Below, in pieces: positions 2,917 through 63,321 of a stretch of 64,000 nt of DNA. Under the pieces are notes generated by a model, which did not search any database, was not told where the DNA came from, and worked only from the letters and a program-made list of their open reading frames with translations. The DNA comes from Eledone cirrhosa (taxonomy: Eukaryota), in the NCBI GenBank assembly GCA_964016885.1, contig OZ024762.1:2914001-2978000 (forward strand), in the 5' to 3' direction. Position numbers and translations under genes: made by a program. The stretch's first letter is position 1, and every line of letters begins with the position of its first letter.

Positions 2917-3219
2917 GTCTCCACTGCTAAAAAGGAGAGAGAATGATAGAAAGACAGCAAAAAAGAAGGAAATAATCAAAGAATAACAGAGAAATGAAGA
3001 ATGGAAGAATGAACTATGAAGGAAATAGAGAGAGAGAAAGTGAGAGAGAGAGAGCCAACTCTGTTCAATTTATAACATTTCCTGTAAATAATGTTTTAAG
3101 AGAAGATACGGAAGGAACTGAATTAAAGGATTCTATTTATTTATTTATTTAATTATTTCTGTAATTAATTAATTAATGAGAACGAGGTCAGATAAATGAG
3201 GTGAACTTTCAACAAGATG

Positions 3220-4437: not shown

Positions 4438-4440
4438 TAT

Positions 4441-4656
4441 ATAACAAAGGAATTGTGGTAAGGAACCAAATGGACCATAACGCACCGGAGTACTCAATAC
4501 TTAGGGTAGTAGAGTTCGAAATGACCGTGACGGCTATTTCTGGACTATATATATATATATATATATATATGAAAAAGTATGACCCCGACGGCAGAGCTCA
4601 AGCCGTATATATATTATGAAATACTGTTGGCTTCATGCTCACAATAATTTCTATAC

Positions 4657-4690
<34 letters not shown>

Positions 4691-4764
4691 CGAAGGAAAT
4701 GTGGTAAGGAACCAGGTGGACCATAACGCACCAAAGTACTCAATACTTGAGGTAGTAGAGTGGG

Positions 4765-4768
<4 letters not shown>
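4441..4768 (-). mobile_element. Cluster of short 3'-terminal fragments of the Naiad-type PLE in (TA)n
   Basis: 4441-4545, 4571-4605 and 4688-4768 match 11420-11560, whose 11500-11560 part is the reverse complement of the PLE 3' end at ~50255-50313. Confidence 0.8.
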
Positions 4769-4805
<37 letters not shown>

Positions 4806-4809
<4 letters not shown>

Positions 4810-5136
4810 GGAGGTGAGTTTTATTGTAGCACAATAAAGCAATGCAAATATCGGATAAGTAGCACTCTACAGTTTGTAGGACTGGAGTATAAATAATATA
4901 AGTTGATTTAAAACTTCACTATTTATATATGTATATATACAAACACAATCTCTCTATATACATATATATATATGGATATGTTGATTTAAAACTTCACTAT
5001 TCACAATTTTTTTTTAACCTTCATATCATGTATCCCTATTTTATCTGATGAAAACGCAGATATCATCTCATGATGATATTTGTTTTTGAAATGCGCATAA
5101 TAAAATACTTGGAACTCTTTTAACCATCTTTTGATC

Positions 5137-5146
<10 letters not shown>
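4806..5146. mobile_element. HHR-bearing short element (family B): inverted 3' tail followed by HHR-containing body
   Basis: 4806-4890 is the reverse complement of ~10177-10261; 4975-5140 matches 10003-10170 and 10541-10708. Confidence 0.8.
5037..5107 (+). ncRNA. Type I hammerhead ribozyme, family B, palindromic minimal stem III
   Basis: TATTTTAT-CTGATGA-long stem II (GCAGATATCATC/GATGATATTTGT)-GAAA-TGCGCA-TA-ATAAAATA; predicted cleavage after AUA at 5099. Confidence 0.85.
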
Positions 5147-5193
<47 letters not shown>

Positions 5194-5501
5194 TCATATA
5201 GACACACACATACACACACAGAGGTGTGTGTATGTGTGTGTGTGTGGGTGTATTTTTTTTTCTTACCTGGCAATGTAATTTTTTCATTTCGACAATGTAA
5301 TTAAGATTATTCGCTGAGATAAACCCAGCAATTAGAGAATCAACATTAGGTACATTCTATTGCTGACTATTGCTTCCCCCCCCCCCGCTCTCTCTCTCTC
5401 TCTCTCTCTCTCACACTCTCTCTCACTCACTGTCTCTCTCTCTCTCTATATATATATATACACACACACACACACAGATATAAATATACACACACACAAA
5501 C

Positions 5502-9554: not shown

Positions 9555-9670
<116 letters not shown>

Positions 9671-9700
9671 AGATCAAAAGATGGTTAAAGGAGTTCCATG

Positions 9701-9770
9701 TATTTTATTATGCGCATTTCAAAATCAAACATCATCATGCAATAATATTTGTGTTTTCATCAGATAAAAC
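9701..9770 (-). ncRNA. Type I hammerhead ribozyme, family B, intact core
   Basis: Minus strand: CTGATGA..long stem II..GAAA-TGCGCA-TA-ATAAAATA. Confidence 0.8.
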
Positions 9771-10066
9771 AGGAGAACATGATATGAAGGCTAAAAAACA
9801 CTTGTGGATAGTGCAGTTTTAAATCAACATATGTGCAAAGGGGGAAAATGAGAAGCAAATGAACACTATGCAGATGTCTAATGATACACACACATACACA
9901 CACACGCACATGTGGTTATCTGCTTAGATAACGAAATATAAACCCAGACCTTACATATTTTAACATTCCCAAGATTTATATAATCTAGAATACCATCCTT
10001 CAGGATATGTTGATTTAAAACTGCACTATCCACAAGTGTTTTTTAGCCTTCATATCATGTTCTCCT

Positions 10067-10136
10067 GTTTTATCGGATGAAAACACAAATATTATTGCAT
10101 GATGATGTTTGTTTTTGAAATGCGCATAATAAAATA
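10067..10136 (+). ncRNA. Hammerhead, family B, core mutated to CGGATGA
   Basis: Mirror of 9701-9770 with a U4 to G change. Confidence 0.65.
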
Positions 10137-10260
10137 CATGGAACTCCTTTAACCATCTTTTGATCTTATATTATGTATACTCCAGTCCTACAAACTGTAG
10201 AGTGCTTCTTATCCGATATCTGCATTGCTTTATTGTACTACAATAAAACTCACCTCCTAC

Positions 10261-10291
<31 letters not shown>

Positions 10292-10295
<4 letters not shown>

Positions 10296-10460
10296 CAAAG
10301 GAAATGTGGTACGGAACCAGATGAATCATAACGCACCAAAGTACTCAATACTTAGGGTAGTAGAGTGGGTAATAGGAATGAGTAGGGTTTCGACGGCTAA
10401 TTCTGGTCCAGAATTAGCCGTCGAAACGGCTTGAGCTCAGCCGTCGGGGTCCTACTCGTT

Positions 10461-10465
<5 letters not shown>
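10292..10465. mobile_element. Fold-back of the Naiad-type PLE 3' end
   Basis: Palindrome GTTTCGACGGCTAATTCTGG-T-CCAGAATTAGCCGTCGAAAC; outer pair ATAGGAATGAGTAGG/CCTACTCGTTCCTAT; retains the 3' half of the HHR. Confidence 0.8.
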
Positions 10466-10502
<37 letters not shown>

Positions 10503-10603
10503 AACAGAATCTCTCTATATACATATATATATATATATATGGATATATTGATTTAAAACTTCACTATTCACAAGTGTTTTTTAACCTTCATATCATGTAT
10601 CCC

Positions 10604-10674
10604 TATTTTATCTGATGAAAACGCAGATATCATCTCATGATGATATTTGTTTTTGAAATGCGCATAATAAAATA
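10604..10674 (+). ncRNA. Type I hammerhead ribozyme, family B
   Basis: Same sequence as 5037-5107. Confidence 0.85.
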
Positions 10675-10708
10675 CTTGGAACTCTTTTAACCATCTTTTG
10701 ATCTTATA

Positions 10709-10744
<36 letters not shown>

Positions 10745-11382: not shown

Positions 11383-11418
<36 letters not shown>

Positions 11419-11419
11419 A

Positions 11420-12100
11420 AACAAAGGAATCGTGGTAAGGAACCAGATGGACCATAACGCACCAGAGTACTCAATAGTTAGGGTAGTAGAGTGGGAAATA
11501 GGAAAAAGTATGACCCCGACGGCAGAGCTCAAGCCGTTTCGACGGCTATTTCTGGACTAAATTAGAATTTTTAGCCTGGTGAATAAATAGCTGTATTTGT
11601 CAACGGGGTACTTCCTTATATGGGAAGATTGTAGTTGTCAAGAGGATTGGTTAAAATTTGTTGTAAACACATGTAAGTCTATCATGACATTTTGTGGGAG
11701 GTAGGGGTGGCTGAACTTGCCTGTAGAACAATAGGGGAGTGAGTGGAGAGGTTGAAAGTGATAAGTATACAGCAGAATCTGAGTATAGAGTATGAAGTGG
11801 AGGATGGAGGTTATAGAATATGTAAATCGAATGAGAGTTGGAGACAATAAAAGATAATAGAAATAATTAAAAATATATATAAATCCAACTTCAGCCGCAA
11901 ACCATCCATTAGGCTTATAAACCCAACGAAGTCGGACATATGGAGAATCAGTAAAAAGATCCTAGACTGAGTTATACCAAAAGTTAAGCAAAACATGAGA
12001 CTTAGCCTATGGGTCAGCTCCCAGGAAATAATCTCATGGTTCAGGAATATGGAGGACAAACGAGACACAAAATTCATCCAGTTTGACATACTTTTTCCTA
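11420..12100. mobile_element. Rearranged Naiad-type PLE copy: 3' UTR on minus strand (11420-~11860), RT fragment on plus strand (~11881-12090)
   Basis: Minus part matches ~49960-50313; plus part reads NFSRKPSIRLINPTKSDIWRISKKILD*VIPKVKQ..FIQFD, matching the RT at 48480-48613. Confidence 0.9.
11506..11613 (-). ncRNA. Hammerhead ribozyme with U3-A8 variant core (second copy)
   Basis: Minus strand: CCCCG-TTGACAA-..-GAAA-CGGC..GCCG-TC-GGGG. Confidence 0.65.
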
Positions 12101-12115
12101 TATATATATCCAGCT

Positions 12116-12447
12116 GGAGGCACATGGCTTAGTGGTTAGAGCATTGGCCTTGCAATCGAAAGGTTGTGAGTTCAATTCTCAGACCGGGTGATGTGTTGTT
12201 CCCTTGAGTAATACACTTTATTTCACATTCCTCCAGTTTACTCAGCTGTAGAAATGAGATGATAGGACTAGGGTCCCTATCATTCCACTGCAAAGTGGTC
12301 ATGTAAGCACCACGGAAAAAAAAGCACCCAGCACTCACTGTAAATGAGGTTGGTGTTAGGAAGGGCATCCAGCTGTAGAAATCAAGCCAGAATCAGTTCC
12401 TGTCCCACCCTTGCAACAGGGAAAAGGGGACGTGTAATGAATGATGA
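12116..12447 (+). mobile_element. tRNA-headed SINE with Meta-like domain and RTE-derived tail
   Basis: Box A TGGCTTAGTGG, box B GAGTTCAATTC, GTTAGGAAGGGCATCCAGC; three near-identical copies in the window. Confidence 0.9.
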
Positions 12448-12511
12448 ATGTTCATATGTACAGCAAAATAATTGTGTTCCGCTTTGCAAATGTCAGTGAC
12501 ATGTGTTTTTG

Positions 12512-12543
<32 letters not shown>

Positions 12544-12691
12544 CATATATATAGATAGATATATAGATAGATATATAGATAACTACCTAGCCCACCTAGC
12601 TAGCTACCTACGCACATACTTTCTCACCTGATTACCAACCCGTATGTCTACATACATATATATATATATATATAATGTCTATACACATATA

Positions 12692-15177: not shown

Positions 15178-15749
15178 GAATGTAAATGGCTGTCCCCAAT
15201 AATGAACCCTGAAGTTGGATTGACTTCTTATCAGAACTGTAGCTGTGAAAACATCTGGCATCCCCCTAAACCTCCACAAAAGTGCCTCACTCCCTTCCCA
15301 CTCACTTTGATTTGGTTGTAAATGGTTCCCCTCCTCCATAATAATGACCCTTGAAAAACAGATTGACTTCTTGTCCGCCCTATAACTCTGGAAATATCTG
15401 GGCTTCTCTTAAGCCCCTTCAAACTCCTCCTCCTGTTTTATTTTGGTATTTTGGGGTGTTTCTGCTCTCTAATCTGACTCCCCACTTCAGTGATGCTGGC
15501 TCAATGTGAGACCCACATCCAAGATCCCAAAGTGACAAAGTATTGGCTGATCTGTGATAGGTTTCTTGTCAAGTTCTTAATGAATGGACCACCAGCAACA
15601 TTGAGATGAATCAAACAGCTTTACTGTACTGACTGATCTGAGACCTCATTCACTTATCAAGTGGGGTGGAACTTGTCAGACCGGACCAAGGAAACAAAGT
15701 TTCCATTGGTCTTTCCAATTGCTGATACTATCTACCAGTCACAACTCTT

Positions 15750-16755
15750 GGCAGTTTTAGTGGGCCCTAACTCCTGGCAGCTTTAGTGGGCCCTAACTCT
15801 TAGCAGCTTTAGTGGGCCCTAACTCCAGGCAGTTTTAGTGGGCTCTAACTCCAGGCAGTTTTAGTGGGCCCTAACTCTTAGCAGCTTTAGTGGGCCCTAA
15901 CTCCAGGCAGTTTTAGTGGGCTCTAACTCCTGGCAGCTTTAGTGGGCCCTAACTCTTAGCAGCTTTAGTGGGCCCTAACTCCAGGCAGTTTTAGTGGGCC
16001 CTAACTCTTAGCAGCTTTAGTGGGCCCTAACTCCAGGCAGTTTTAGTGGGCCCTAACTCTTAGCAGCTTTAGTGGGCCCTAACTCCAGGCAGTTTTAGTG
16101 GGCCCTAACTCTTAGCAGCTTTAGTGGGCCCTAACTCCAGGCAGTTTTAGTGGGCTCTAACTCCTGGCAGCTTTAGTGGGCCCTAACTCTTAGCAGCTTT
16201 AGTGGGCCCTAACTCCAGGCAGTTTTAGTGGGCCCTAACTCTTAGCAGCTTTAGTGGGCCCTAACTCCAGGCAGTTTTAGTGGGCCCTAACTCTTAGCAG
16301 CTTTAGTGGGCCCTAACTCCAGGTAGTTTTAGTGGGCCCTAACTCCTGGCAGCTTTAGTGGGCCCTAACTCCAGGTAGTTTTAGTGGGCCCTAACTCTTA
16401 GCAGCTTTAGTGGGCCCTAACTCCAGGCAGTTTTAGTGGGCCCTAACTCTTAGCAGTTTTAGTGGGCCCTAACTCCTGGCAGTTTTAGTGGGCCCTAACT
16501 CTTAGCAGCTTTAGTGGGCCCTAACTCCAGGTAGTTTTAGTGGGCCCTAACTCTTAGCAGCTTTAGTGGGCCCTAACTCCAGGCAGTTTTAGTGGGCCCT
16601 AACTCCTGGCAGCTTTAGTGGGCCCTAACTCCAGGCAGTTTTAGTGGGCCCTAACTCCTGGCAGCTTTAGTGGGCCCTAACTCCAGGCAGTTTTAGTGGG
16701 CCCTAACTCCAGGCAGTTTTAGTGGGCCCTAACTCCAGGCAGTTTTAGTGGGCCC
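15750..16755. repeat. 26-bp minisatellite, ~38 copies
   Basis: Unit AGTTTTAGTGGGCCCTAACTCCAGGC, alternating with a CTTAGCAGC variant. Confidence 0.97.
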
Positions 16756-16899
16756 CTCCTCGCAGTTTTTTTAATTCTTTTTAAAAACACAAAAAGAGAT
16801 ACAAATAAATTGACAAAGAGAGAGATAAAGTGAGAATGAGACATATAGAGAGATAGAACAGATTATTAGATAACCAGAGATATAAAGGTAGAGAGAAAG

Positions 16900-19139: not shown

Positions 19140-19196
<57 letters not shown>

Positions 19197-19197
<1 letters not shown>

Positions 19198-19537
19198 GAG
19201 GCACATGGCTTAGTGGTTAGAGCATTGGCCTTGCAATCGAAAGGTTGTGAGTTCAATTCTCAGACCGGGTGATGTGTTGTTTCTTTGAGCAAGACACTTT
19301 ATTTCACATAGCTCCAGTTTACTCAGCTGTAGAAATGAGATGATAGGGACTGGGGTCCCTATCATTCCACTGCAAAGTGGTCGTGGAGGTGCCACGGCAA
19401 AAAAGCACCCAGCCCACACTGTAAATGAGGTTGGTGTTAGGAAGGGCATCCAGCTGTAGAAATCAAGCCAGAATCAGTTCCCGTCCCACCCTTGCAAGCA
19501 GGGAAAAGCGGACGTAAAATGAAATGATGATGATGAT
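19197..19537 (+). mobile_element. tRNA-headed SINE with RTE-derived tail (copy 2)
   Basis: As 12116-12447; directly follows (TA)n. Confidence 0.9.
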
Positions 19538-20503
19538 ATAACACAGGTGACTGATACAACACAGTGATGGTAGATTTGTTTTAATACTTAATATAGCTGT
19601 AAAAAAAGAGAGTCTAAATGTTTCGGATCCTCGTCCTTCATTGTAAGATAGAAAAAGGGACAAGAAAGGATGTTTGGAGGAGAGAAGAAAAAGGAAGACA
19701 GACACGAGCAAAAAACATGGAGCGGTGGAGTAAAAACGAAAGTATGTTTTCTTGCTCAGACATCATCATCATCATCATTATCATTCTTTCTTTAGCATCA
19801 AAGAGGAATCTGTGCAGCCAACAATCTTGCTCGGATCCAATAAAATGGTTTGGAGCAGTTTTGTTGCACTAACGTTTGTGGCGTGCGTGTGTATGAGTAT
19901 ATCTGTGTGTGTGTGTGTGTGTATATGAGTATATCTGTGTTTGTTTGTGTGTGTATGTGTATATCTGTGTTTGTTTGTGTGTGTATGTGTATATCTGTGT
20001 TTGTATGTGTATATGAGTATATCTGTGTGTGTGTGTGTTGTTTTTAATTTTAAATGAGCAGGAAACAGAACAATAGCTCCAGCTATGTTGGGGGTGGGGG
20101 GATGTAGCAGATGTATTTCTATAAATGTGTGTGTATATATATATATACACATGTGTGTGTATATATGTATATTTATGTATCTCCGTATATGTGTGTGTGT
20201 GTATGTAGTGAGTGAGGGAGGAAAGAGAGGTTTGTATACATTTATGAAGGTATAAAAATAAATATATAAAATATATACCAAGGAATTAATTGAAGGAACA
20301 ATATATACACACACACGTATATATATATATATATATATATTTATGTGTATGTCTATATATATATTTGTGTGTGTGTACAAGTGTATGTGTATATATATTA
20401 ATGTGTGTGTACATGTGTATAAGTATATATATTTATGTGTCTATATGTGTACACATGTATGTGTTTATGAGTGTGTATGTGTGTATTTATATGTATTCAT
20501 GCC

Positions 20504-21706: not shown

Positions 21707-22920
21707 GAGATGTCAATATATTGATGGGCCTCAGTCACTGGTGACGAAGAGTGCTCCAGCTGGGGAGATGTCAATATATTGATGGGCCTCAGTCACTGGT
21801 GACGAAGAGTGCTCCAGCTGGGGAGATGTCAATATATTGATGGGCCTCAGTCACTGGTGACGAAGAGTGCTCCAGCTGGGGAGATGTCAATATATTGATG
21901 GGCCTCAGTCACTGGTGACGAAGAGTGCTCCAGCTGGGGAGATGTCAATATATTGATGGGCCTCAGTCACTGGTGACGAAGAGTGCTCCAGCTGGGGAGA
22001 TGTCAATATATTGATGGGCCTCAGTCACTGGTGACGAAGAGTGCTCCAGCTGGGGAGATGTCAATATATTGATGGGCCTCAGTCACTGGTGACGAAGAGT
22101 GCTCCAGCTGGGGAGATGTCAATATATTGATGGGCCTCAGTCACTGGTGACGAAGAGTGCTCCAGCTGGGGAGATGTCAATATATTGATGGGCCTCAGTC
22201 ACTGGTGACGAGGAGTGCTCCAGCTGGGGAGATGTCAATATATTGATGGGCCTCAGTCACTGGTGACGAAGAGTGCTCCAGCTGGGGAGATGTCAATATA
22301 TTGATGGGCCTCAGTCACTGGTGACGAAGAGTGCTCCAGCTGGGGAGATGTCAATATATTGATGGGCCTCAGTCACTGGTGACGAAGAGTGCTCCAGCTG
22401 GGGAGATGTCAATATATTGATGGGCCTCAGTCACTGGTGACGAAGAGTGCTCCAGCTGGGGAGATGTCAATATATTGATGGGCCTCAGTCACTGGTGACG
22501 AGGAGTGCTCCAGCTGGGGAGATGTCAATATATTGATGGGCCTCAGTCACTGGTGACGAGGAGTGCTCCAGCTGGGGAGATGTCAATATATTGATGGGCC
22601 TCAGTCACTGGTGACGAGGAGTGCTCCAGCTGGGGAGATGTCAATATATTGATGGGCCTCAGTCACTGGTGACGAAGAGCGCTCCAGCTGGGGAGATGTC
22701 AATATATTGATGGGCCTCAGTCACTGGTGACGAGGAGTGCTCCAGCTGGGGAGATGTCAATATATTGATGGGCCTCAGTCACTGGTGACGAAGAGCGCTC
22801 CAGCTGGGGAGATGTCAATATATTGATGGGCCTCAGTCACTGGTGCCGAGGAGTGCTCCAGCTGGGGAGATGTCAATATATTGATGGGCCTCAGTCACTG
22901 GTGACGAGGAGTACTCCAAC
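21707..22920. repeat. 58-bp minisatellite, ~21 copies
   Basis: Unit GAGATGTCAATATATTGATGGGCCTCAGTCACTGGTGACGAAGAGTGCTCCAGCTGGG. Confidence 0.97.
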
Positions 22921-23054
22921 TGGTTCAATTAACAGAATTGCTTTCTCATAAAATAAACGTGTAAGTCCCTGAACCTGACATAGACATTGTTTCTGTGTAA
23001 AACATAGAACACCTCTTTCAATATATATATACACATATATATATATGTATATAT

Positions 23055-23407: not shown

Positions 23408-25077
23408 CATCATCATCATCACCGTTTTACGTCCGTTCTTCCACGCTAGCATGGGTTAGACAGGTTGTCTTGTTGTGGGCAGTGTCCGGTTGGCTGACCT
23501 TGTCTTGCTCATACGGGAACTGATTCTGGCTTGATTTCTACAGCTGGATGCCCTTCATAACACCAACCTCATTTACAGTTAGGGCTGGGTGCTTTTTTTG
23601 CCGTGGCACCTCAATGACCACTTTACAGTGGGAGGGTGTGGGGGCATATTGTCTATATGCTTCAGCTTCGGCTTGTACCCGCGAGGGGTCGGGTTTTCTG
23701 TATTACTGCGGGACACCAGAGGTCACGGTCGTGTGTCAGAGGTGTAATTGGGAAAGGTCGGCTTTTATCACCTCATCCCAGGTCTTCTTGGGTCTCCCCA
23801 CTCCATGGTTTCCATCGACTTCTAGTGCTCTGCACCTTTTTATGCAGCTGTCATCCTTCATACGCATCACATGTCCATAGCAACGCAACCACCTCTCCTG
23901 CACACAGCATTTGATTCCTCTTATGCTCAGTCTCTCTCTCTCAATTCCTTTATGCTTTGCCATTCGCGTATATTACTATTACACATTCATCGGAGCATGC
24001 AGGCTTCGTTTCTTTCTAATCTACACAAGTCTTCCACAGACAGCGCCCAGGTCTCACTACCATGTAACATTGCTGTTCGTATACACGCATCTTACAGTCT
24101 GCCTTTCATTTTGAGGGAGAAGCCTTTTGCAGCTAGCAGTGGTAGTAGCTCCCTGAACTTCTTCCATCCCATTCTTACCCTAGTTATTGTAATTTCCGAA
24201 CACCCACCTCCACTGCTAATTTGGTCACCAAGATAGCAGAAGCTGTCTACTGTTTCTACAGAGCCCTCCCAGAGTTTGGTGGTACTTGTTTCCTGTGGCT
24301 GTTTGCTGCTTGCTGTCCTAGCAAGTGAAGCCTACATTCTTAGTTAAGCTTCCTGAGATCCCACTACATCTCTTGTGTACCCATTGTTTGCATTTGGGGC
24401 AGAGAATGGAGTTCCTACCTACACCTTTCCTACATACTGAGCAAGGCCATTTCCCTGAGGGGATCTGGGTTCTGTTTTCTCATCTACTTACAAGGACCTT
24501 AGTCTTTGTCAGGTTGACTTTGAGACCTTTCTTTCTAGTCCCTGCTTCCAAGTTTGGAATTTCTTCTCTAGTTCTACCATAGATTCAGCTATAAGTGCGA
24601 GGTCATCAGCATACAGGAGTTCCCATGGGCATCCGGTCTTAAACTCCTCCGTTATTGCCTGCAGAACTATGATGAACAGGAGAGGACTAAGAACAGAGCC
24701 CTGGTGGACCCCAACCTGTACACTAAATTCCTCGCTATACTCATTGCTAATCCTAACTTTGCTGATTGTTCCCCTATATATGGCTTGTACAGCTTTCACA
24801 AGCCATTCATCTACTCCTAGTTTTCTAAGAGCCCACAAGATTATAGCACGGGGCACTCTGTCAAAGGCTTTCTCGAGATCAACGAATGCCAGGTAGAGCA
24901 GCTTACTTTTAGCTAGGTACTTTTCCTGTAACTGCTTCACAAGGAAGAGGGCATCAGTGGTGCCTCTTCCTAGCACAAATCCAAATTGCATCTCATCTAG
25001 TTTCACCCGGTCCCTAATCAACTGTGCTATAACTCTTTGTTACTTTCATGACCTGGTCCATCAGCTTTATACCTCTA
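23408..25077 (-). mobile_element. 5'-truncated RTE-clade LINE with disrupted RT
   Basis: QFGF, FVDLEKAFDRV, GVHQGSVLSPLLF and LLYADD motifs; Cys-rich segment near 24360-24450; YGHVMR C-terminus; (GAT)n tail. Confidence 0.95.
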
Positions 25078-29714: not shown

Positions 29715-30578
29715 ATTAGAAAACAGTGTGAATTCAAAGAAATCTGGTAAATATCAGCTACAAAGATAGATATAAAGGTAAATATATTGACTATATGTGT
29801 GTGTGTGCGTGTGTGTGTGTGTGTGTGCGTGTGCGTGTGTGTGGAATATATATAATGTATCTGTGTGTGTATTTATGTCTGTGTGTGTGTATATATATAA
29901 TGGTCAAGATTTTTATGATAAACCTAAATTTATATGAGTGTGTGTGTACGTGCAAATCTGTCTAACCCATGCCAGTATGGATAAATGTATGATATATATA
30001 TATGCGTGCGTATGTGTGTGTGTTCTACACAACTTATATTGCAAGATATTCATCAGCTATCAGCTGGAAATTTCTACAATTTTGGCCACCTCTGACATTA
30101 CTACTCCTTCCATTGGTGCCATGCAGGGTTGATGCTACCAGTTAATGTCCAGTCTTTATGTTCTACTCTGGAGAACAGTTTGTCCTCCTTGTGTAAGACA
30201 CCAGAACACACTGCTGCAATACTGGTGTAATGCATTAACTCCGACGCTCAGAACTTGGTTATGTTGCCAAGGATGACTTAGAGACGGCCATCTTCCAATG
30301 AGGCGTGACTTCTGCACCAAAATATACATATATAAATGTATGTGTACATGTATGTATATCATCATCATCATCATCGATTTAACATCCGTTTTCCCTGCTA
30401 GCATGGGACGGGTCTACATAGACCAAGTCAGTACTGAAGCAGATCTACTGATCTCCCTGACAGGTTGGCAGCTGGTCTGTATCTCACGTATGGCCATATG
30501 TTCTATTGAAGACACAGGAGAAGTGGTCATGTCTTTGACACAACTAAAGGATCCTTGCATTCATTTCTATGTATATAC

Positions 30579-30609
<31 letters not shown>

Positions 30610-30613
30610 CATA

Positions 30614-30953
30614 GGAGGCACATGGCTTAGTGGTTAGAGCATTGGCCTTGCAATCGAAAGGTTGTGAGTTCAATTCTCAGACCGGGTGATGTGTTGTTTC
30701 CTTGAGCAAGACACTTTATTTCACATTGCTCCAGTTTACTCAGCTGTAGAAATGAGATGATAGGGACTGGGGTCCCTATCATTCCACTGCAAAGTGGTCG
30801 TGGAGGTGCCACAGAAAAAAAGCACCCAGCACTCACTGTAAATGAGGTTGGTGTTAGGAAGGGCATCCAGCTGTAGAGATCAAGCCAGAATCAGTTCCCG
30901 TCCCACCCTTGCAAGCGGGGAAAAGGGGACGTAAAATGATGATGATGATGATG
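30614..30953 (+). mobile_element. tRNA-headed SINE with RTE-derived tail (copy 3)
   Basis: As 12116-12447. Confidence 0.9.
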
Positions 30954-31251
30954 TGTGTGTGTATATATATATGGGTGGGTGTATGTTTGTATGTATTTAT
31001 ATGTATTATATATGAGTGTATGTATATATATATGTCTACATATATACACACACATATATATACATACATACACACACACACACATATATATATATACACA
31101 TATATATATATACACACACATTGACTTCCCCAGATGCGACATTGCAGTGTGCCGCAGCAATTTTTAAATAAATTCTAACGATTTCTGAACATTATTACAC
31201 AAAATACACAAAAAAACATTTTGCCTTTTTAGCAGTTTGTAATGTTATAGG

Positions 31252-42890: not shown

Positions 42891-43507
42891 GGTTCAATGT
42901 TCAGCATGCTACGCTCATAAACATGAGGTCATAAGATCAAATCGTAGGTCAGGCAGTACATTGTATTATTGAACCAGTTGCTTCATTTCAGGTTTTCATG
43001 ATAGAACTGGGGTCCCTATCATTACAACAACCGGGAAACCTCCCATGAAAGATAGCCTTGTTCATCTGCCTATCTATATCACTCACTCACTCTCTCTCTT
43101 TATATATATATATATATATACATATACATACATACATACATACATACATACATACATACATACATACATACATACATACATACATACATACATACATACA
43201 TACATACATACATACATACACGCAAAAAGACATTCACATACATTTACATATGAAAAAAAAATGATAATTTCAAGGGAGGCTACTCTATAATTTAACAATT
43301 TGGTTCTCTCCCTTGTTGGGTGTGGGTGTGTTAGAAGCTTGCCTTTCTTTTAACATTTTAGAAAGAGCCACAATGCTGAATTAATCACCTTATGTAAGTG
43401 TATGAGAGAGAGACAGACAGACAGAGAAAGCAAACCTTTTGGTTTGGCACGACTGGGAAGTATTTCTCAAAACCCTCCGGTACATTGCAGTGCGTAGCAG
43501 AGTTCGA

Positions 43508-43782
43508 TGGATTGGCAGTATCAGTAGAGGGACGGAGGCCATGCTAGGGCGGTGGATTGGCAGTATCAGTAGAGGGACGGACGCCATGCTAGGGCGGTGG
43601 ATTGGCAGTATCAGTAGAGGGACGGACGCCATGCTTTCCAGCATAGTTACGTCCCTTTGCGATCTGAGTTCAAATCCCGCCGAGGTTGACTTTGCCTTTC
43701 ATCCTTACGGGGGTAGATAAAATAAAGTACCAGTAATGCACTGGGTAATTGCTGGCCTTGTGCCTAAAGTAGAGATAATTAT
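43508..43782 (+). mobile_element. Deu/Nin-domain SINE with triplicated 5' head
   Basis: Three copies of GGATTGGCAGTATCAGTAGAGGGACGGA, then GAGTTCAAATCCCGCCGAGGTTGACTTTGCCTTTCATCC. Confidence 0.85.
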
Positions 43783-43967
43783 TGTTAATAATTTTGCGTT
43801 AAAATGGCTGAAAAAAAAAAATATATTGTCACGAAAAAGGCAACGAAATAATCGGCATAACAATATATTTACGATTCCGCGAATATGCGGTGGTTTCCAT
43901 AAACAATTATTAGTTAGGTTCTAAGGAAAGTGCCGCGAATATCGGTGTACACTGTATTTATATCAAG

Positions 43968-47068: not shown

Positions 47069-48613
47069 GTAAGTGCCGATGATTTTACTGTTTGGGTATC
47101 TTTAGTTTTCGTCTAGTTTATTTGGGGTGGCGGTTGGGTTGGTTTAAGATTAAGGTTCGGTGTCGGGTTTACAGTTGGGACTAGTTTGTGTAAGAAGCGA
47201 GAAGAATCCCATGATTTATTTTTAGAAAGGGAGAAACCGTATCTTTACCAGTTTATCTGTAAAAACGAGTTAATTGCGAGATACAGATTTTATTTTTTAA
47301 ATAACGGGAAGGTTTTGGAGATAGGACAGTTAATAATTAAGTTATCTCTGTTATCAGTTTGACGCATTTCTATTTCGAAAAATAACTACCATATCTATGC
47401 GTTAACCGTACCAACTATATATATTTGAAAAACAGCCAATTTTTATAGACATATATATGTAAAATTATCCCAGACAATTCGACATTTAATTTCCCAAAAA
47501 TATATAATTCCACGGGAGAAAATGTACTATAATCAACAATTGATTTCTCTCCCTTTACTGCACTTTGTATTTCTATTTACATCAATTTAATTTGAAATTC
47601 TAATTTCAAGGGAGAGAAAAGTTTATTTAACAATTACGTTAAGTTTAATTTAAAGAAATAGTTGTCTCCCTCTGCTATACTTGGACTAGTATATAATACA
47701 TTATGTTGTGACATTACCGCCGTTTAATTTTAACGCCAGGATTTAAAATTTAGTTAAGTTTATTCAAGGGAGATAATATTATTTAGTTAATAAATAAGTT
47801 GTTTCCCTTGGCTGAACTTTTTATTATATTTATTTTTGCTGTGTTTATGATATTTATTTTGGTGTAACATAAATTTTCCCCTTCGCTTACCTCCCCTCTC
47901 CTAGCTTACCTCCCCTTTCCTCGCTTACCTCCCCTTTCCTCGCTTACATTATTTATTTATGAAATTATTCCTTGGGGTTAGAGCGGCGGTGGATGTAGTG
48001 CAGGTTGTCGTTTGGTTTCCTGTATGGGTAGTACAGATCATTTTCGAGGTTAAGGGTAACGTCCAGGAAATTGACTCGGGTTAGGGACGTTTGTAGGGTG
48101 ATTTTAAATCCCCAGTCCCGGAAGAAGTTGATTAGTTGTTTACGGACCCGGTCTGTACTACTGGGGTTGTACCATTTGAGGGTGAGGAGCCCATCATCCC
48201 GGTACAATCCCCCGCCGAATGCAGGAAACATTTTGGTGAGTTTAAATAGTAGGAATAATCCTATAAGATCTGTGACCTCGGCCGAATCCGTCCATACTGA
48301 CGTCGAAGGGTGAGTCAGGAGCTCTCTTTATCCACCTGGAGTTGTCGAAAAGTAGGACTGTCTTTCTGGCGTGGAGAATGATATTTCTTTCCTGGTCAGT
48401 GATGAGCGTGAGTGTTTCGGCAAAGTCAAAGGCGGCCGTAAGGAGCGGTAAGGTAATAGATGCATAGTAACTCTCTCTGTCAAACTGGATGAATTTTGTG
48501 TCTCGTTTCTCCACCATATTCCTGAACCATGAGATTACTTCCTGGGTGCTGACCCATAGGCTAAGTCTCACGTTTTGCTTAACTTTTGGTATAACTCGGT
48601 CTAGGATCTTTTT

Positions 48614-49543
48614 ACCAAACGACAACCTGCACTACATCCACCGCCGCTCTAACCATCCTAGAAACAACACCAATAACCTGGTTAAAAACACCTCCCTCCG
48701 CATATCTCGTTTGTCCGCTAATGAGCAGGTATTCGACGAACACGCGCCTCATTACAACCAGGCCCTCAAGTGGAGTGGCTTCCGGGAGGAAATATCCTTT
48801 TATCCAGCTTCCCTTAGCTGAACCAGCAGGCGACACCGCCGCTCACGCAATGTAACGTGGTTCAATCCCCCCCCCCCCATAATGCCGAGGTGGAAACACC
48901 TATCGGGAAAATCTTCTTTAGACTCCTCGAAAAACACTTCCCACTACAACACCGCTACCACAACATAATCAATAAAAACACCATCAAACTCTCCTACAGC
49001 ACCACACCTAACTTCGCACAAAACATCGTCTTCTCAAACAACAAAAAACTCAACCCCTATGGAAGGAATAACCTAGACATCAGTGGAGAGCCGACCAGGA
49101 GGTGTAACTGCCCTGATAGATATACCTGCCCCCTCAACAACAAATGCCGAGAACTTAACGTGATCTACCAGTGCAACGTGAGGACGGACACCTCCAACAA
49201 AGCTTATATAGGATTAACCGCGTGTGACTTCAAGACCCGGCTCTACCAACACCGACATACTTTCCGAAACCCGGTCCGGCGACATGCCACTACACTTTCG
49301 GGCCACATCTGGGACCTCCAAGATAATAATATATCCTACAATCTCATTTGGAGCTTACTGTCCAGAGCTAACTCTTACACGGGAGGACGCCGCCCGTGTA
49401 ACTTATGCTCGGAGGAAACATTACAAATGCTGTTTTCGAAGGACCAACTCCTAAACAAGAAAGACGAACTGGTAACTGTATGCAGACACAGATTGCGTAG
49501 GACTTACCTCGCTTTCAAACCCCATAACGACCCGGGTGGGTAG
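48614..49543 (+). pseudogene. PLE RT thumb plus GIY-YIG endonuclease (stop at 48819, poly-C frameshift near 48870)
   Basis: YIHRRSNHP, WFNPP, CNC..CPL..C, VIYQC..YIGLT..FKTR..QH, CNLCSEE, LLNKKDE..CRH. Confidence 0.9.
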
Positions 49544-50199
49544 AGAAGAGGTGATACCCCCCTGCCGAATAAGTTAGGGGAAACCCCAGCTTACTTAGGT
49601 AGATGTATCTCTTTTCTTTTCTTTTCCTTCTTCCCCCTGTCTCATCCTATCACTTCCTTCCACCCCTATTTTCTTCCTCGTCTGCTTTTCTCCTTTCGCC
49701 TACCCCGATGCAGCCCATCGGGCCTCTATAGCATCAGTTCCCCACCCCTGTAATTTTAAGATAGAATTGGCCGAATACGTTTTACTAACTACTTATAGCA
49801 GACATGTTAAACCCCTTTAATTTAGTATCAGTTCTGGTACAATTTCTACAAGTTTTTTTCTATTCTCAACTTATTAACCTGTAATTGTAAGATAGCATTG
49901 TGATTTTTACTCATTTCTCACTATCTAATTTTATATATATTTTTATTTATTTCTATTATCTTTTATTGTCTCCTACTCTCATCTGATTTACCTATTCTAT
50001 AACCTCCCTCCTCCACTTCATACACTATCCTTAGAATCTGCTGTATACATATCACTTTCAACCTCTCCACTCACTCCCCTATTGTTCTACAGGCAAGTTC
50101 AGCCACCCCTACCTCCCACCAAAAGCCATTATAGACTTATTTGTGTTTACAACAAATTTTAACCAATCCTCTTGACAACTACAATCTTCCCATATAAGG

Positions 50200-50307
50200 A
50201 AGTACCCCCTTGACAAGTTCGGCTATTTATTCACCAGGCTAAAAATTCTAATTTAGTCCAGAAATAGCCGTCGAAACGGCTTGAGCTCTGCCGTCGGGGT
50301 CATACTT
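50200..50307 (+). ncRNA. Type I hammerhead ribozyme with U3-A8 variant core
   Basis: CCCC-TTGACAA-(CGGCTATTT..AAATAGCCG)TC-GAAA-CGGC..GCCG-TC-GGGG; GUC at 50293-50295. Confidence 0.78.
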
Positions 50308-50539
50308 TTTCCTATATATATATATATATATATGTATGTATATATATATGTATATATATATATAACTTTGAATAACTTTGAAATGTTTTGGCCAGTATTG
50401 GCCCAGGCCATGTCTAACTTAATAGCACCACCTGGCGAAGTCTTTCAATTCAGGATTTGGGCACCGTGGCCCATTCGAGAAGAGAATTACTGTTTGCAGA
50501 GACATATCCGGGTGTGGGTGGTTTGTCCGGGAAAATCAA

Positions 50540-52785: not shown

Positions 52786-52865
52786 TGTAAACGGAAACCA
52801 CAAAAGAAACAACATAGTACAACGAAGAAATATATTAGTTTAACGCTTGATATAATACGAATGAG

Positions 52866-52901
52866 TCTTTACGTTTCGGACGCTAGTCCTTCGTCAGAAG
52901 A
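52866..52901 (-). ncRNA. Minimal type I hammerhead ribozyme, family C, intact
   Basis: Minus strand: TCTT-CTGACGA-A-GGAC-TAGC-GTCC-GAAA-CG-TA-AAGA. Confidence 0.85.
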
Positions 52902-52961
52902 TAGAATGAAAAATAAGATGAAATAAAAAAAAAAGTGAAAAGTGGAAGCTTTTTTATCCTT

Positions 52962-53851
52962 ACGGCATGTCAAACTGAGAGTCCCCCAAGGGCCACATGG
53001 GTTCCATATGTGTTGTCTGAGGACCACATGGGTTCCATATGTGTTGTCTGAGGACCACATGGGTTCCATATGTGTTGTCTGAGGACCACATGGGTTCCAT
53101 ATGTGTTGTCTGAGGACCACATGGGTTCCATATGTGTTGTCTGAGGTCCACATGGGTTCCATATGTGTTGTCTGAGGACCACATGGGTTCCATATGTGTT
53201 GTCTGAGGACCACATGGGTTCCATATGTGTTGTCTGAGGACCACATGGGTTCCATATGTGTTGTCTGAGGACCACATGGGTTCCATATGTGTTGTCTGAG
53301 GACCACATGGGTTCCATATGTGTTGTCTGAGGACCACATGGGTTCCATATGTGTTGTCTGAGGACCACATGGGTTCCATATGTGTTGTCTGAGGACCACA
53401 TGGGTTCCATATGTGTTGTCTGAGGACCACATGGGTTCCATATGTGTTGTCTGAGGTCCACATGGGTTCCATATGTGTTGTCTGAGGACCACATGGGTTC
53501 CATATGTGTTGTCTGAGGACCACATGGGTTCCATATGTGTTGTCTGAGGACCACATGGGTTCCATATGTGTTGTCTGAGGACCACATGGGTTCCATATGT
53601 GTTGTCTGAGGACCACATGGGTTACATATGTGTTGTCTGAGGACCACATGGGTTCCATATGTGTTGTCTGAGGACCACATGGGTTCCATATGTGTTGTCT
53701 GAGGACCAGATATGGCAACTAAGTACACACATTTCAACTAATATTTTTTTTAATTTCATATTACACTCGCGCTTAAAAACCTTTGTGCGGGCCGCAGGTC
53801 TGCTTGTAATGGGCCACATGCGGCCTGCAGGACACATGTTTCCCATGCCTG
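52962..53851. mobile_element. hAT-like MITE containing a 31-bp tandem array
   Basis: Ends ACGGCATGTCAAAC and GTTTCCCATGCCTG (10/14 match); subterminal GGGCCACATG at both ends; no TSD found. Confidence 0.55.
52993..53708. repeat. 31-bp minisatellite, ~23 copies
   Basis: CCACATGGGTTCCATATGTGTTGTCTGAGGA. Confidence 0.97.
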
Positions 53852-53881
53852 GTATAGATAAAATAAAGTGTATAAATCAGA

Positions 53882-54505
53882 TGGATTGGCAGTATCGGTA
53901 GAGGGTCGGACGCCATGCTTTGACGTATAGAGTTACGGCCCTTGCCATTCTGAGTTCAAATCCCGCCGAGGTTAACTTTGCCTTTCATCCTTACGGGGTC
54001 GATAAAATAAAGTACCAGTAATACACTGGAATAATTGCTGGCTTTGTGCCAAAAGTAGAAACAATTATTATTATGGATTAGCAAAATCGGTGGAGCGTCA
54101 GTCACCATGTTTTGCAGCTTAAAATTACGCCCCTTTACGACCTGGGTTCAAGTATCGGCAAGGATAGCTTTACCTTTCATCCTTACGCGGGTCGATAAAT
54201 ATAGCACCAGTAATACACTGGGGACCATTTAATCGACTTTCCCCTACCCCAAAATTTCTAGCCTTGTGCCGATATAAGAAACCGTGCCAAAAGTAGAAAT
54301 AATTATTATTACTATTGCTGGATTGGCAGTATCGGTAGAGCGCCAGACACCATGCTTTGAAGCGTGGAGTTATGGCCGTTTATGCTATGAGTTCAAATCC
54401 CGCCGAGGTTAACTTTTCCTTTCATCCTTACGGGGTCGATAAAATAAAGTACCAGTAATGCACTGGGAGTAATTGCTGGCCTTGTGTCAAAAGTAGAAAA
54501 TTATT
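53882..54505 (+). mobile_element. Three tandem Deu/Nin-domain SINEs
   Basis: Heads near 53882, 54074 and 54319, each with box B and CCTTTCATCCTTACG..GGTCGATAAA. Confidence 0.88.
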
Positions 54506-54753
54506 ATCATCATTAGTATTGCTTTGGTTGGCGACCTCTAGAGAGCGAAAGGCAAACTAGATCCCGCCGGAAGTTGAACTCGGAATGGTGAAAACCATGT
54601 ACGAATACCGCAGAATAGTCTTCCATTGAACGGCCTACATATGTCTGCCTGAGAAATATTAGCGGTCATTAAAGGATACTTGATCCCTTGGATGGATTAT
54701 AGCCTGGAACACTGATATGACTGCACTGCAGTATTAATGAGCTTTACATACAC

Positions 54754-58490: not shown

Positions 58491-58605
58491 AGTTCAAATC
58501 CCGCCGAGGTTGACTTTGCCTTTCATCCTTACGGGGTCGATAAAATAAAGTACCAGTAATGCACTGGGTAATTGCTGGCCTTGTGCCTAAAGTAGAAACA
58601 ATTAT
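58491..58605 (+). mobile_element. 5'-truncated Deu/Nin-domain SINE
   Basis: Near-identical to 43667-43780; ATTATTTGTTCATAGTT is duplicated on both sides (TSD-like). Confidence 0.88.
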
Positions 58606-61369
58606 TTGTTCATAGTTGAGGTGATACCTTTCAAATATAAATAATATATTATTATATTACAATAATGCAATATTGCAACATAGTAAATAATTTCCTGAAG
58701 ATATTGCTCAAAATATATACAGTTAAAAATATTGTTAAAGAATTAGTGTTTTATATCAATTATTTTCATTTAGTTGATATATACTATAAAGATATAAGTC
58801 AAAACTATATGAGTCCTAGTGATAGGGGCTAGATTCAAAATAAGTAAATATATATATATATAAATAAAAGAAAATGAATTATTTGTGAAATTTAAAGATG
58901 CCCAAAATTAGACATAAATGCAATATGGTTTTAATAAAGTATAGAAAAGATATCTCTAAAATAATTTAGTGAATGTGATATAAAGAAGCGCTGAATATTT
59001 GAAAAAGCTGAAGGTAATCTAAATTTAATTAAAATAAAATAAAACAAAATAAGTTAAGTTAAATTATATTATATTATTTTATATTGTATTAAGTAAATGA
59101 TTATATAAGTTCGACCTTCCAGGGAAAACCAAACACTTATAATGATATATAATGTCATTTGAGTGTCTAAATTATTTATAAATGTAACTACGATTATGTT
59201 ATTACACTAGATAAAGATATTTGTACAACTATATATAGATATAATTATAGGTATTAATGAAACGGTATACATTTAATAAAAAATAATTATTATAATCATT
59301 GTTAGTAATGCTACAATTGTAGATTTACCTCCAGTTCAGTGGAGAGATAGACCAATATTTGTCAGCTATTATGGTTTGTTAAATTTATACCTAGATATAC
59401 ACAAAAAAACCAAGTGCAAATCCAAACTTTCTGAGTCCCCAAAAACATACTCAAAGTGAGTAAAATATATATATATATATATATAAAATATGCAAACGTA
59501 TGAATGATCCACAGTTCAAATTATAGTCAGTAAATTTACAAGTTAGATATCCAAACTATATATTTAAAACAGAGACAGATAAATAAAGATCTGAATCAAA
59601 GTTATAAATATCAAAAAAATCATAGGGTATGTATATCTATCAAGTAAACAATTTATCAAACAAGTAGAAGATCCCAGAAAAACTGTTGCGCAAAGTGTTA
59701 GAAATAACAGCCAAAATTGATGGTCAGTGTTGAGCTTTGATCTGATTGAGTCCAGATGAAGTTGCGACCATAGAAACGAGCATGCAGAATAAATGCACAG
59801 TAACTAACCCCAATTTACGACATTGTAGTGTCGCAAATCTTTTACTGGCAAATACAAAAAATAGCTTGGGCTGATGAAGCCCTTGAAAAGAAATAGCAAA
59901 GCATGGCTTCTTAGTGAGTCGAGATTTGTGCACTACACACGTGCTAGTATAAGGTGAAATTGAAGTTGAAACAATTTATTTTGCGCTGGAAAATTACGAA
60001 AGAGACAAGATGACTACCGAAAATGAAAGAAGAGGAGGTAGCTGTCGGCCATTTGATTCCCACTGTCAATTTGATGAAGAGGAAGAAGGAAAAGGCTTCG
60101 TTGAACGAGTAAGCGAGAAAAAGGTGAGGCACATTTAGATGATACAACACGTGAGGTGTAGGAAAATGTTATTTTTCGTTGGAGAAACTGTTTTTTGTTT
60201 GTCGGAGACTTCAATACTTATATATATATATATATAAATATACGCGGCTACCAATTCGACGCCATTAACTCCTCTAATGTTTTGTTACGAATTTACCGGC
60301 CTTAGATTACTTTAAATTACATTACTATGTAATGTAGGCTCCAGTAATATTTCTATCACATAACATAAAAACATGTTGTATAATCGATTATATTGGTCCC
60401 TACCTTTGTCCAGTACTCTAATCTATTGATCTCAAAAGGATGAAAGACAGAATTGACCTCAGTGGAATTTGAAGTCGGAGAAAGCTAAACGGTATTTCTA
60501 TAAATACCGCAATAAATTTAATTTTGTCCGCTTGTCTATTCCCAATTCTCCCTCTATCTAATCTCCCCAATTCCCCCTCTATCTAATCTCCCCAATCATC
60601 ATCCACCTCACCACCATCTGCAACAGTATCAGATTTTCGTATATCATGAAGATGTTTTTGTTGTCTTGTTTTCATTAGAAAAGAAACACCAGTGAAACTA
60701 TAAAAATACATGTAAGGCATTTCGTTCGAGCTTTTTATTTTCTTGGCGTTAATTAAGATATCTCCGAATACGTCGCCTGGAGAACAAGAATCAAAAGAAA
60801 AACATGACGGCCATACTTATACATCAATGTACCGCAGGATATAGGAAAAGTTTCAATAGAAATGAAAATTCTAAGCTAATACACTCGTTTGTTTCTGTTC
60901 GTAAAGTATAATACCGTGTTTGTTTGATCCTGTAATATATTGATGCTTCTTTTTAAAAGGAAGCATTTGTTTGACGCTTCTATTATATTTCAAAATAACA
61001 CTGGCTGATAAGTAGCTTTGTAAATTGCATTGTTAATGAAAATGAGGTTTACGATATTCGAGTCTTGTAAACATAAGCAATGATATTTTGTTTTTGTTTT
61101 TCTTTTTCTTTTTGTTTTTCTTTTTGTTTTTTTTTTTGTTTTTCTTTTGGTTTTTAATCTGATTGCTTCCGACCAAATATATATACATACATTGGGAAAC
61201 AATGTATCTGTTATGCAGATGAACATTTCTAACAAACAATACGTCCAGGCTTCACATGTCCATGTCTTAACTGATAACGTGACTGACTAGAATGATAAAT
61301 CTTTCGGTTTTATGATTCGGCGGTGATAACGGTTTCGAGTTCCGCCTCGCTATTTGATCCGGTTCTCTA

Positions 61370-63277
61370 TGCTCTGAGTTCAAATCTGAGGTCAACGTTT
61401 GCCCAAACTCCTTACGATCTCAATAAATACAGTACCAATCCAGTACTGGGCCGATTTTCTCCCATTCTCTCTCTCTCTCTCCTCTGAATTCAAACCCCAC
61501 CGCGGTCAACTTTTATCTATAGTCCTAACAACGTGGATGAATAAAGTACCAATCCAGTACTGGGGTAGATTTTCTCCTTCTCCCTCTCCTTATCGCCGAC
61601 TCCCTCCTAACTCTCTCTCTCTCTCTCACTATATATATATGTATGAGTTCAAATCTCGCCATGATCAACTCTGCCTAGCATCCATTCAGATTCGGGTTCG
61701 ATAAAATAAACTATAAATCCAGGAACGATAGACAGATATGTATGGGCTCGTAACTTCCGGTGTAGATCATAGGGGCGCCATCGTGACATACGACGTGCCC
61801 TTTAAACCTGGCGGATTCCCATCAGGCTGGAATGTAACCGGTTTCTTCCAGTGAGAGAGAGAATAAAAATAAACCCCAGTCCTAGAGTGGTAGTTTGTTT
61901 TATCGACCTTCAAAGGACGACAAGCAAAGTTGACCTCGGCGGGATTTTAACCCAGAGAGAGCAGAAACCGAAAGGAATACACCCAAAGATTTTTATCTAA
62001 TGTTCTTACATGTATATGTATGGCCTCATTACTTGTGGGGGAGTCATTGAGGCCCCGTGCTAACATACCGCGTTTCTAGAGCATCTTTTAAAAACTTGGT
62101 GGAGCCCATTTACTCTCCAGTCCTGAAAACAGCAGATTTCTGGCAGGGAAGGAGAGAGACAGAGGAGTAGAGAGAGAGAGGAGGGAGGGGTAGAGAGAGA
62201 GAGGAGGGAGAGGGGTAGAGAGAGAGAGGAGGGTGAGAGAGAGGTAGAGGGAGGTGGGAGAGAGAAAGGATGGAGGGGGAGATAGGAGGGGGACAGAGAA
62301 TGGGAGAGTGACGAGAGAGGGGGAGACAGACAGAGAGAGAGAGAAATATATATAACTACTAGACTAGTAGTTTATTTATCGACCTTGAAAGGATGTCGAG
62401 CAAAGTTTACATCGGCAGGATTTGAACTAGAAGAGCAGAGAGGAGCAAAAAGAATTCCACCAACATATTTTATCTGATGTCCTTACAATCAATGTCAATT
62501 CGTTGCCATATTATTTAAGCTATGTACAATTCAATATTTCCAATTTTATACATTATTGTGCTTTAAATTCTGAAAAATTTTTGAAAATAATTATCTTATT
62601 GTAATTTTAGCTTCTATTATAACAATAACGTCTTATTTTACCACAATTTTCAATTTAATTCTTTGTCATTTAAATATTACCATATTTAGCCTTAACAAGC
62701 AGCGAGGCAACAATTCCAGCGTGATAGAAAAATTATAAATATATAATAAATGATAATAATAATGGTTTCTGATTTCGGCACAAGGCCAACAATTTTGGGG
62801 GAAAGGGAAAGTCGGTTAAATCGACCCCTGTGCATTACTGGTACTTTATTTTATCAACTCCAGTGTATTACTGGTACTTTATTTTATCGACCCCGAAAGG
62901 ATGAAAGGCAAAGTCAACCTCGGCGGAATTTTATATAATAAAGAACAATAATAATGTTTTCTGATTTACACACAAAGCCAATATTTTTTGAGGGGTGGCG
63001 GGGAGAAATTCAATTAAATCGGCCGCAGTGCATTACTGGTAATTTATTTATCGACTTCTAAATAATGGTTTCTGATTTAGGCACAAGGCCAACAATTTTG
63101 GGGCTGGAGAAAGTCGATTCAATCGGACACAGTGCATTACTGGTACTTTAATTTATCGACCCCGTAAGGATGAAAAGGAAAACTAGCCTCGGCGGGATTT
63201 GAACTCAGAAAGTTAAAGGGCGTAACTTTGTGTCGCAAAATATATTGACCGACGCTCTACCGATACTGCCAATCCAC
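61370..63277. mobile_element. Cluster of Deu/Nin-domain SINE copies (plus strand 61370-61710; minus strand 61870-61950, 62360-62430, 62760-63277)
   Basis: Repeated TTATCGACCCC..AAGGATGAAAGGCAAAGTCAACCTCGGCGG motifs. Confidence 0.8.
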
Positions 63278-63321
63278 AAACAATGAAAAATAAATTCTCT
63301 AAATAACATATGCATATATAT

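Follow-up and report, generated by a model that had tools for sequence, protein, structure and literature searches.

The 3' end of a decayed Penelope-like element at positions 50200-50307 of the 64-kb window (the whole stretch of DNA that was analysed) has the complete layout of a type I hammerhead ribozyme, with U3 and A8 in the core where canonical hammerheads have C3 and G8. Our preferred reading, which we hold to be probable, is that this U3-A8 hammerhead terminates an element of likely Hydra-clade affiliation and is predicted to cut its own RNA after C50295, probably slowly or only in some contexts. Positions 3 and 8 of the hammerhead form a tertiary Watson-Crick pair, and the U3 and A8 seen here are able to form such a pair. 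The parts of the motif are as follows.

50200..50307, plus strand: whole type I hammerhead motif, from sequence, folding and descriptor; the distal part of stem I is extendable to 50197/50310 with G-U pairs
50200-50204/50303-50307 and 50206-50209/50296-50299, plus strand: stem I, with a 1x3 internal loop (50205; 50300-50302)
50210..50216, plus strand: 5' strand of the core, U3 U4 G5 A6 C7 A8 A9 (TTGACAA), from the sequence
50217..50272, plus strand: stem II domain of 56 nt, comprising the G10.1-C11.1 pair, a 2x1 U-rich loop, a 9-bp helix, an 8x3 internal loop and a 7-bp hairpin
50217 and 50272, plus strand: G10.1 and C11.1, from the sequence
50220-50228/50262-50270, plus strand: 9-bp helix of stem II, capped by the inner hairpin of 7 bp
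50273-50275, plus strand: G12 A13 A14, from the sequence
50276-50280/50290-50294, plus strand: stem III of 5 bp, with a 9-nt loop that contains a 6-nt palindrome, and then U16.1
50295, plus strand: C17, with the predicted cut at 50295/50296, placed by hammerhead numbering

Three helices surround the core and the structure is open at helix I, as type I requires. Helix I contains the 1x3 loop, and helix II contains internal loops and has no short terminal loop. The motif carries U4 G5 A6, A9, G12 A13 A14, the A15.1-U16.1 pair and H17 of the consensus list given in passages of PMC3088659; the canonical letters C3 and G8 are absent, and the published U3-A8 variant is matched instead. The layout which an earlier note had read from the letters (a stem I with an internal loop, a long stem II, a 5-bp stem III and the core TTGACAA) is thus borne out by sequence, descriptor and folding.

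This layout is not due to chance. A relaxed type I descriptor, composed after the motif had been seen, has a single match in the 64-kb window, at 50210 on the plus strand, and it has no match in 100 dinucleotide shuffles of the window or in 2000 shuffles of the local 712 nt. No hammerhead was found on the minus strand of 50200-50307, in the antisense reading. The suggestion that searches for the standard CUGANGA core would miss the variant also holds, since the canonical CTGANGA descriptor has no match in the window and an Rfam search of 50150-50315 at E values up to 10 returned two weak unrelated matches and no hammerhead, a miss to which the long stem II may contribute. Rfam applied to the whole window at E values up to 1 gave 433 matches, and all of the 150 that were listed are microRNA models on microsatellites.

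The folding of the motif is more stable than that of most shuffled sequences (z = -2.56, with equal stability in 2 of 200 shuffles), and in 954 of 2000 sampled folds of a 118-nt version all three stems are in register. The pair probabilities of the 9-bp helix of stem II are 0.56-0.98, while that of the lone 10.1-11.1 pair is 0.06, and in the minimum free energy structure the core pairs with 50270-50274 rather than adopting the hammerhead form. An alternative hairpin across the GAAA strand takes up 1-2% of the ensemble in this copy, as against 34% in a decayed copy near 11.5 kb. The seven core letters TTGACAA recur 38 nt upstream, at 50172-50178 (compare 50166-50178 with 50206-50216).

The host of the motif is recognisable from the sequence on its 5' side, and the attribution of the hammerhead to the 3' end of a Penelope-like element is upheld by an open reading frame (ORF) with reverse transcriptase (RT) and GIY-YIG motifs upstream and a (TA)n run downstream.

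49544..50314, plus strand: 3' UTR or pseudo-LTR of the element, which ends directly on the (TA)n run
48614..49543, plus strand: decayed end of the ORF, which codes for the RT thumb, a linker of CxCx5C form and a GIY-YIG endonuclease containing CxxC and CxH; the frame is broken by a stop at 48819 and shifts near 48870
47976..48615, minus strand: part of this element's RT region, inverted and decayed; a 5' inversion with 41 nt duplicated at the junction

The hammerhead lies on the sense strand, about 660 nt past the endonuclease stop and just ahead of the (TA)n run. The GIY-YIG call was made by eye from a VIYQ...YIG motif together with the RT pieces, with 39-44% identity to three proteins; Pfam, applied to the endonuclease piece, returned a weak unrelated match and no GIY-YIG match. 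Truncation at the 5' end with inversion, an optional 3' tail and a 3'-terminal hammerhead, which are features of Penelope-like elements, are all present, and passages of PMC8557442 and PMC11167929 report inversions and optional tails in elements of this type. There is no full-length Penelope-like copy within the 64-kb window, and the N-terminal part, where the RWK and DKT motifs would lie, is missing from the window copies. Of the traits by which the Hydra clade is described (protein motifs and (TA)n insertion; PMC8557442, in part), the element has the CxCx5C linker, CxxC and CxH around conserved E and N, no CCHH, and insertion into (TA)n, while the canonical hammerhead of that clade is replaced here by a U3-A8 core and a long stem II, as against 26 canonical rows out of 26. 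Published sequences were compared with it by eye, and on these shared traits it is likely that the element belongs to the Hydra clade. Protein-based locus searches confirmed none of 16 candidates in viral contigs and none of 85 in prokaryote genomes. A pattern scan of metagenome contigs gave two loci, both of which are GC-rich and unrelated outside the pattern, and these were taken as chance matches.

The state of the family at the core was read from four sequencing runs of three organisms, out of 11 runs listed: contigs (X1) and raw reduced-representation reads (X9) of organism A, contigs of organism B (X4) and contigs of organism C (X6). Sequences were aligned to 50060-50312 at 80% likeness and differences were listed from 4% upwards; depth in these data is not copy number, and alignment to the 50200 copy favours sequences that look like it. 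In organism A position 3 is T in 94.0% of the X1 contig depth and in 491 of 569 X9 reads (86%). It is C in the remaining 6.0% of X1 depth and 78 X9 reads, as well as in one X6 contig (8.24 of a depth of 15.5), and no T>C change at this position was found in the X4 contigs. Position 8 shows no change among the differences listed in the four runs. Because the A>G places tallied in X1 (one), X4 (two) and X6 (one) are all assigned to other positions, G8 must lie below 4% in those three contig sets; in X9 one A>G place falls outside the differences listed and could be position 8, and in X1 there are A>T and G>T places outside the differences listed which could fall in the core. A contig of 139 nt from organism B (X4) covers 50162-50300 with no differences. 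U3 with A8 is the majority state of the family in organisms A and B, so the earlier description of a family-level variant is correct, and the CTGACGA consensus which had been named as the finding that would speak against it did not appear. It is accordingly very improbable that a canonical CTGACGA consensus was the starting point from which both window copies decayed once inserted: changes of C to T and of G to A are common and the ORF is broken here, but the scarcity of G8, the majority of U3 in two organisms and the exact 139-nt match in organism B all stand against it.

The variation at the other core positions supports the register in which the core has been read. The letter at N7 (50214) is other than C in 50% of X1 depth and in 308 of 622 X9 reads, with A and G as the alternatives. 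This position thus varies freely, as is expected of the single free position of the core, and this speaks for the register as well as for selection on the core. All substitutions of U4 are below 4% in X1, as are all substitutions at positions 5, 6 and 8 except A>T or G>T. A change of A9 to T occurs in 106 of 622 X9 reads, from only five starts. Common variants at 50232, 50244 and 50250 fall in predicted loops, and one at 50289 gives stem III an additional pair.

Hammerhead sequence is found in five pieces of the window, of which two include the core and three retain only the 3' half of the motif. Apart from the copy at 50200, the pieces and the segments joined to them are these.

11498..11883, minus strand: second copy of the pseudo-LTR, identical in its core letters but with four private changes around them; its hammerhead is at 11506-11613 and the likeness is 94.6% over 386 nt
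11884..12109, plus strand: RT pieces and a 3' end, all inverted, that adjoin the second copy and tie the second pseudo-LTR to the same RT
11416..11500, minus strand: 85-nt 3' tail after the hammerhead, repeated at 4439-4522, 4685-4769 and 10290-10374
10290..10465, no single strand: head-to-head fold-back of an inverted tail and two hammerhead 3' halves, without the 5' core strand
4439..4606, minus strand: a pair of short pieces of the family's 3' end lying between runs of (TA)n, without the 5' core strand

The claim that the diverged copy at 11506-11613 shares the core is right as to the seven letters, which are identical, but the support that this copy lends is weak, since its hammerhead is decayed around the core. 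It differs near the core at positions corresponding to 50209, 50217, 50219 and 50221 of the 50200 copy; these four changes break the 2.1-1.1 and 10.1-11.1 pairs and one pair of stem II, and the three stems are in register in only 3 of 2000 sampled folds. According to the per-run tallies each of the four changes is below 4% in X1, and the changes therefore represent private decay. The idea that the family's 5' arm of stem II is perfectly paired, and that both window copies have decayed there, was rejected for the 50200 copy, because the changes that it requires at 50217-50219 are all below 4% in X1 and because of the exact match in organism B. At 50060-50065 related copies (loose ends, X1, X4) hold several extra letters which are absent from both window copies, pointing to a subfamily deletion common to the two. 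At 85 nt the optional tail exceeds the 30-40 bp reported for the tail of other Penelope-like elements. The fold-back at 10290-10465 gives a near-perfect palindrome at the stem II arm, with matching opposite-strand joints in the reads of organism A, and the short fold-back forms carry diagnostic letters of their own at 50264, 50289 and 50302.

The proposal of the earlier note that U3-A8 is a compensatory change is supported in part. The tertiary 3-8 pair is described in passages of PMC3884650. Relative to the Hydra clade, in which all tabulated rows have C3 and G8, U3-A8 is a double change that preserves this pair, and to that extent the proposal stands. Within the family compensation and covariation are conjectural: no C3-G8 sister was seen among the related contigs and reads of the three organisms, and what is present instead is a minor lineage, found in all three, which over 50205-50216 has C3 or one T fewer, G7 and apparently A8. 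In X1 and X6 the alignment of C3 carriers begins no earlier than 50206, and in X4 one contig has a gap of a single letter at 50210. To judge by linkage drawn from the tallies, the minor C3 lineage apparently keeps A8 in X4 and X6, which would result in a C-A mismatch. In addition, with C at position 7 a change of G8 to A would be of the CpG type and would need no selection to explain it.

These observations bear on a rival explanation, which we regard as possible but rather unlikely, in which the core is a relic. G8 would have changed to A in the master element with the loss of cutting, U3 would have arisen later through drift or a slip in the C/T run, and only recognition of the 3' end by the element's protein would have preserved the stems. 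The near-fixation of A8 alongside a polymorphic position 3, with the C3-A8 lineage in three organisms, is consistent with such a history, and so are the three window pieces without the core and the depth of the core-less 3' half, which is 52, 20, 23 and 5 times that of the core in the four runs; this half shows opposite-strand joints at 50254-50261 that resemble the fold-back of the window. Depth, however, does not measure copy number, and 5' truncation is expected to yield short 3' pieces. In the anole Penelope-like element hammerhead mutants did not lower insertion in vitro, which suits a dispensable ribozyme; single mutants at position 3 or 8 of that element abolished cleavage (both from passages of PMC11167929). 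Two features of the family favour a core that has been under selection: N7 is about 50% variable while the neighbouring core letters have no variant that large among the differences listed in X1, and the majority lineage holds precisely the letter that restores the pair.

Under the preferred reading of an active U3-A8 ribozyme, the RNA of the master element would adopt the standard hammerhead fold with the U3-A8 pair replacing C3-G8, and cleavage would take place after C50295, probably at a low rate or in a restricted set of contexts. Since its 5-bp stem III is stable, the master ribozyme would presumably act as a monomer, and it may trim tandem or read-through transcripts, as has been proposed for other Penelope-like elements. 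Genomic copies retain sequence beyond the cut site, so that insertion is likely to proceed from uncut RNA.

A further possibility, which we consider improbable, is that the ribozyme is gated by its position in the transcript, through pairing of an upstream segment with stems III and I.

50092..50104, plus strand: segment with complementarity to 50278-50292 in stem III and its loop, a prediction noticed post hoc, with C-runs at 50076-50079 and 50105-50109

In this scheme the copy at the 3' end would stay uncut and its end would be kept for reverse transcription, while a copy transcribed from a start that lies within the upstream pseudo-LTR and past the segment would fold and cut. The segment and the nearby C-runs are predicted to out-compete the hammerhead fold, which is 3.3-6.7 kcal/mol less favourable with an upstream context of at least 95 nt. 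With 150 nt upstream the blocking helix has a pair probability of 0.96-0.98, the same being true of the second copy, and it imposes a penalty of 6.74 kcal/mol on the hammerhead fold which 2 of 200 shuffles of the upstream part reach; the duplex energy is reached in 9 of 1000 shuffles. If the RNA starts at 50140 or later the penalty at 37 C is 0.4-0.6 kcal/mol, 50092-50104 has no variants among the differences listed, and tandem elements start transcription within the upstream pseudo-LTR (passages of PMC6765202). Yet the segment was seen post hoc, and the equilibrium prediction disregards co-transcriptional folding; a penalty above 1.5 kcal/mol already occurs in 48% of shuffles, and the penalty shrinks to 3.26 once the upstream context is lengthened to 270 nt, and to 4.08 if the common variant at 50289 is present. 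At 20 C an upstream context of 30-60 nt already costs 2.2-2.9, and the segment may be a remnant of an inverted duplication, which is common in this Penelope-like family. The fullest version of this scheme, a monomeric U3-A8 hammerhead of a Hydra-clade family that is switched by the anti-stem-III segment (inactive at the 3' end of the transcript and active at its 5' end) and that was reached through a surviving C3-A8 intermediate, is slightly more doubtful again. If it were true, the switch would explain why uncut hammerheads are kept in Penelope-like insertions, and the C3-A8 intermediate would represent a natural compensatory walk through a ribozyme core.

The U3-A8 core is not in itself new, contrary to what the earlier note implied, and the swap alone will not surprise a specialist. 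In several natural hammerheads C3-G8 covaries to U3-A8, with activity stated in vitro (Perreault et al. 2011, passages of PMC3088659); these passages do not place the variants in Penelope-like elements, and the activity of the present motif is a prediction. U3-A8 has also been published within Penelope-like elements, in the Cercyon hammerheads of Schistosoma mansoni, for which a dedicated descriptor gave about 1,300 matches (Cervera and De la Pena 2014, PMC4209133, in part). These resemble the present motif in having U3-A8, in being of type I, in lying in the pseudo-LTR of a Penelope-like element, in being missed by the canonical descriptor and in having a palindromic loop 3 (letters in both cases), but they are without a proper helix III and are believed to function as dimers (the dimer model is treated in passages of PMC6765202), whereas in the 50200 motif stem III is 5 bp long with a loop of 9 nt, the stem II domain measures 56 nt, and the element belongs to another clade. 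The large-helix-III hammerheads of fungal and protist Penelope-like elements described in passages of the same 2014 paper share the stable helix III, helices I and II of varied size and the lack of a recognisable loop-loop contact, and they are active as monomers in the fungal case that was tested; their elements are endonuclease-less and telomeric, in contrast to the present element with its GIY-YIG domain and U3-A8 core.

The hammerheads of the Hydra clade (Craig et al. 2021, PMC8557442, in part) likewise occupy the sense strand close to the 3' end of their elements, following a GIY-YIG domain and a CxCx5C linker, and these elements insert into (TA)n. All 26 rows for this clade in File S2 of that paper, covering 25 of 27 families in a table made with the canonical descriptor, have C3 and G8, with a stem II of 3-7 bp closed by a short loop and a stem III of 3-4 bp with a loop of 1-3 nt; in place of these short stems, the 50200 motif carries a stem II domain of 56 nt and a stem III of 5 bp. 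Four probes of 11-13 nt from the motif were not found in the portion of the PMC8557442 supplement searched, where line breaks may hide matches. No U3-A8 hammerhead of the Hydra clade was found in the File S2 table or in the passages of open-access literature consulted, and the supplements of PMC4209133 and PMC3088659 could hold cases. What is new is therefore a U3-A8 example in a likely Hydra-clade element with a long stem II and a stable stem III, the core swap being already known. It extends the published variant to an apparent member of a clade whose tabulated hammerheads are all canonical, and it indicates that descriptor-based hammerhead counts overlook whole families. The majority U3-A8 state, the apparent C3-A8 minority and the core-less 3' fragments together form a natural series in which it can be asked whether cleavage matters to Penelope-like elements.

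The window is rich in other repeats as well. A second repeat family of roughly 175-260 nt, with copies 89-98% alike at 4920-5200, 9608-9832, 10003-10179 and 10481-10741, lies interspersed among the Penelope fragments within runs of (TA)n. A dispersed repeat of SINE-like size (~360-480 nt, 85-95% alike) is present at 12099-12577, 19144-19539, 23513-23631 and 30564-31070, and a dispersed family of ~190 nt has many partial copies, at 43505-43793, 53880-54520, 58491-58617 and 62740-63279. Homogeneous minisatellite arrays occupy 1594-3069, 15613-16800, 21707-22923 and 52834-53877, with periods of 49, 26, 58 and 31.
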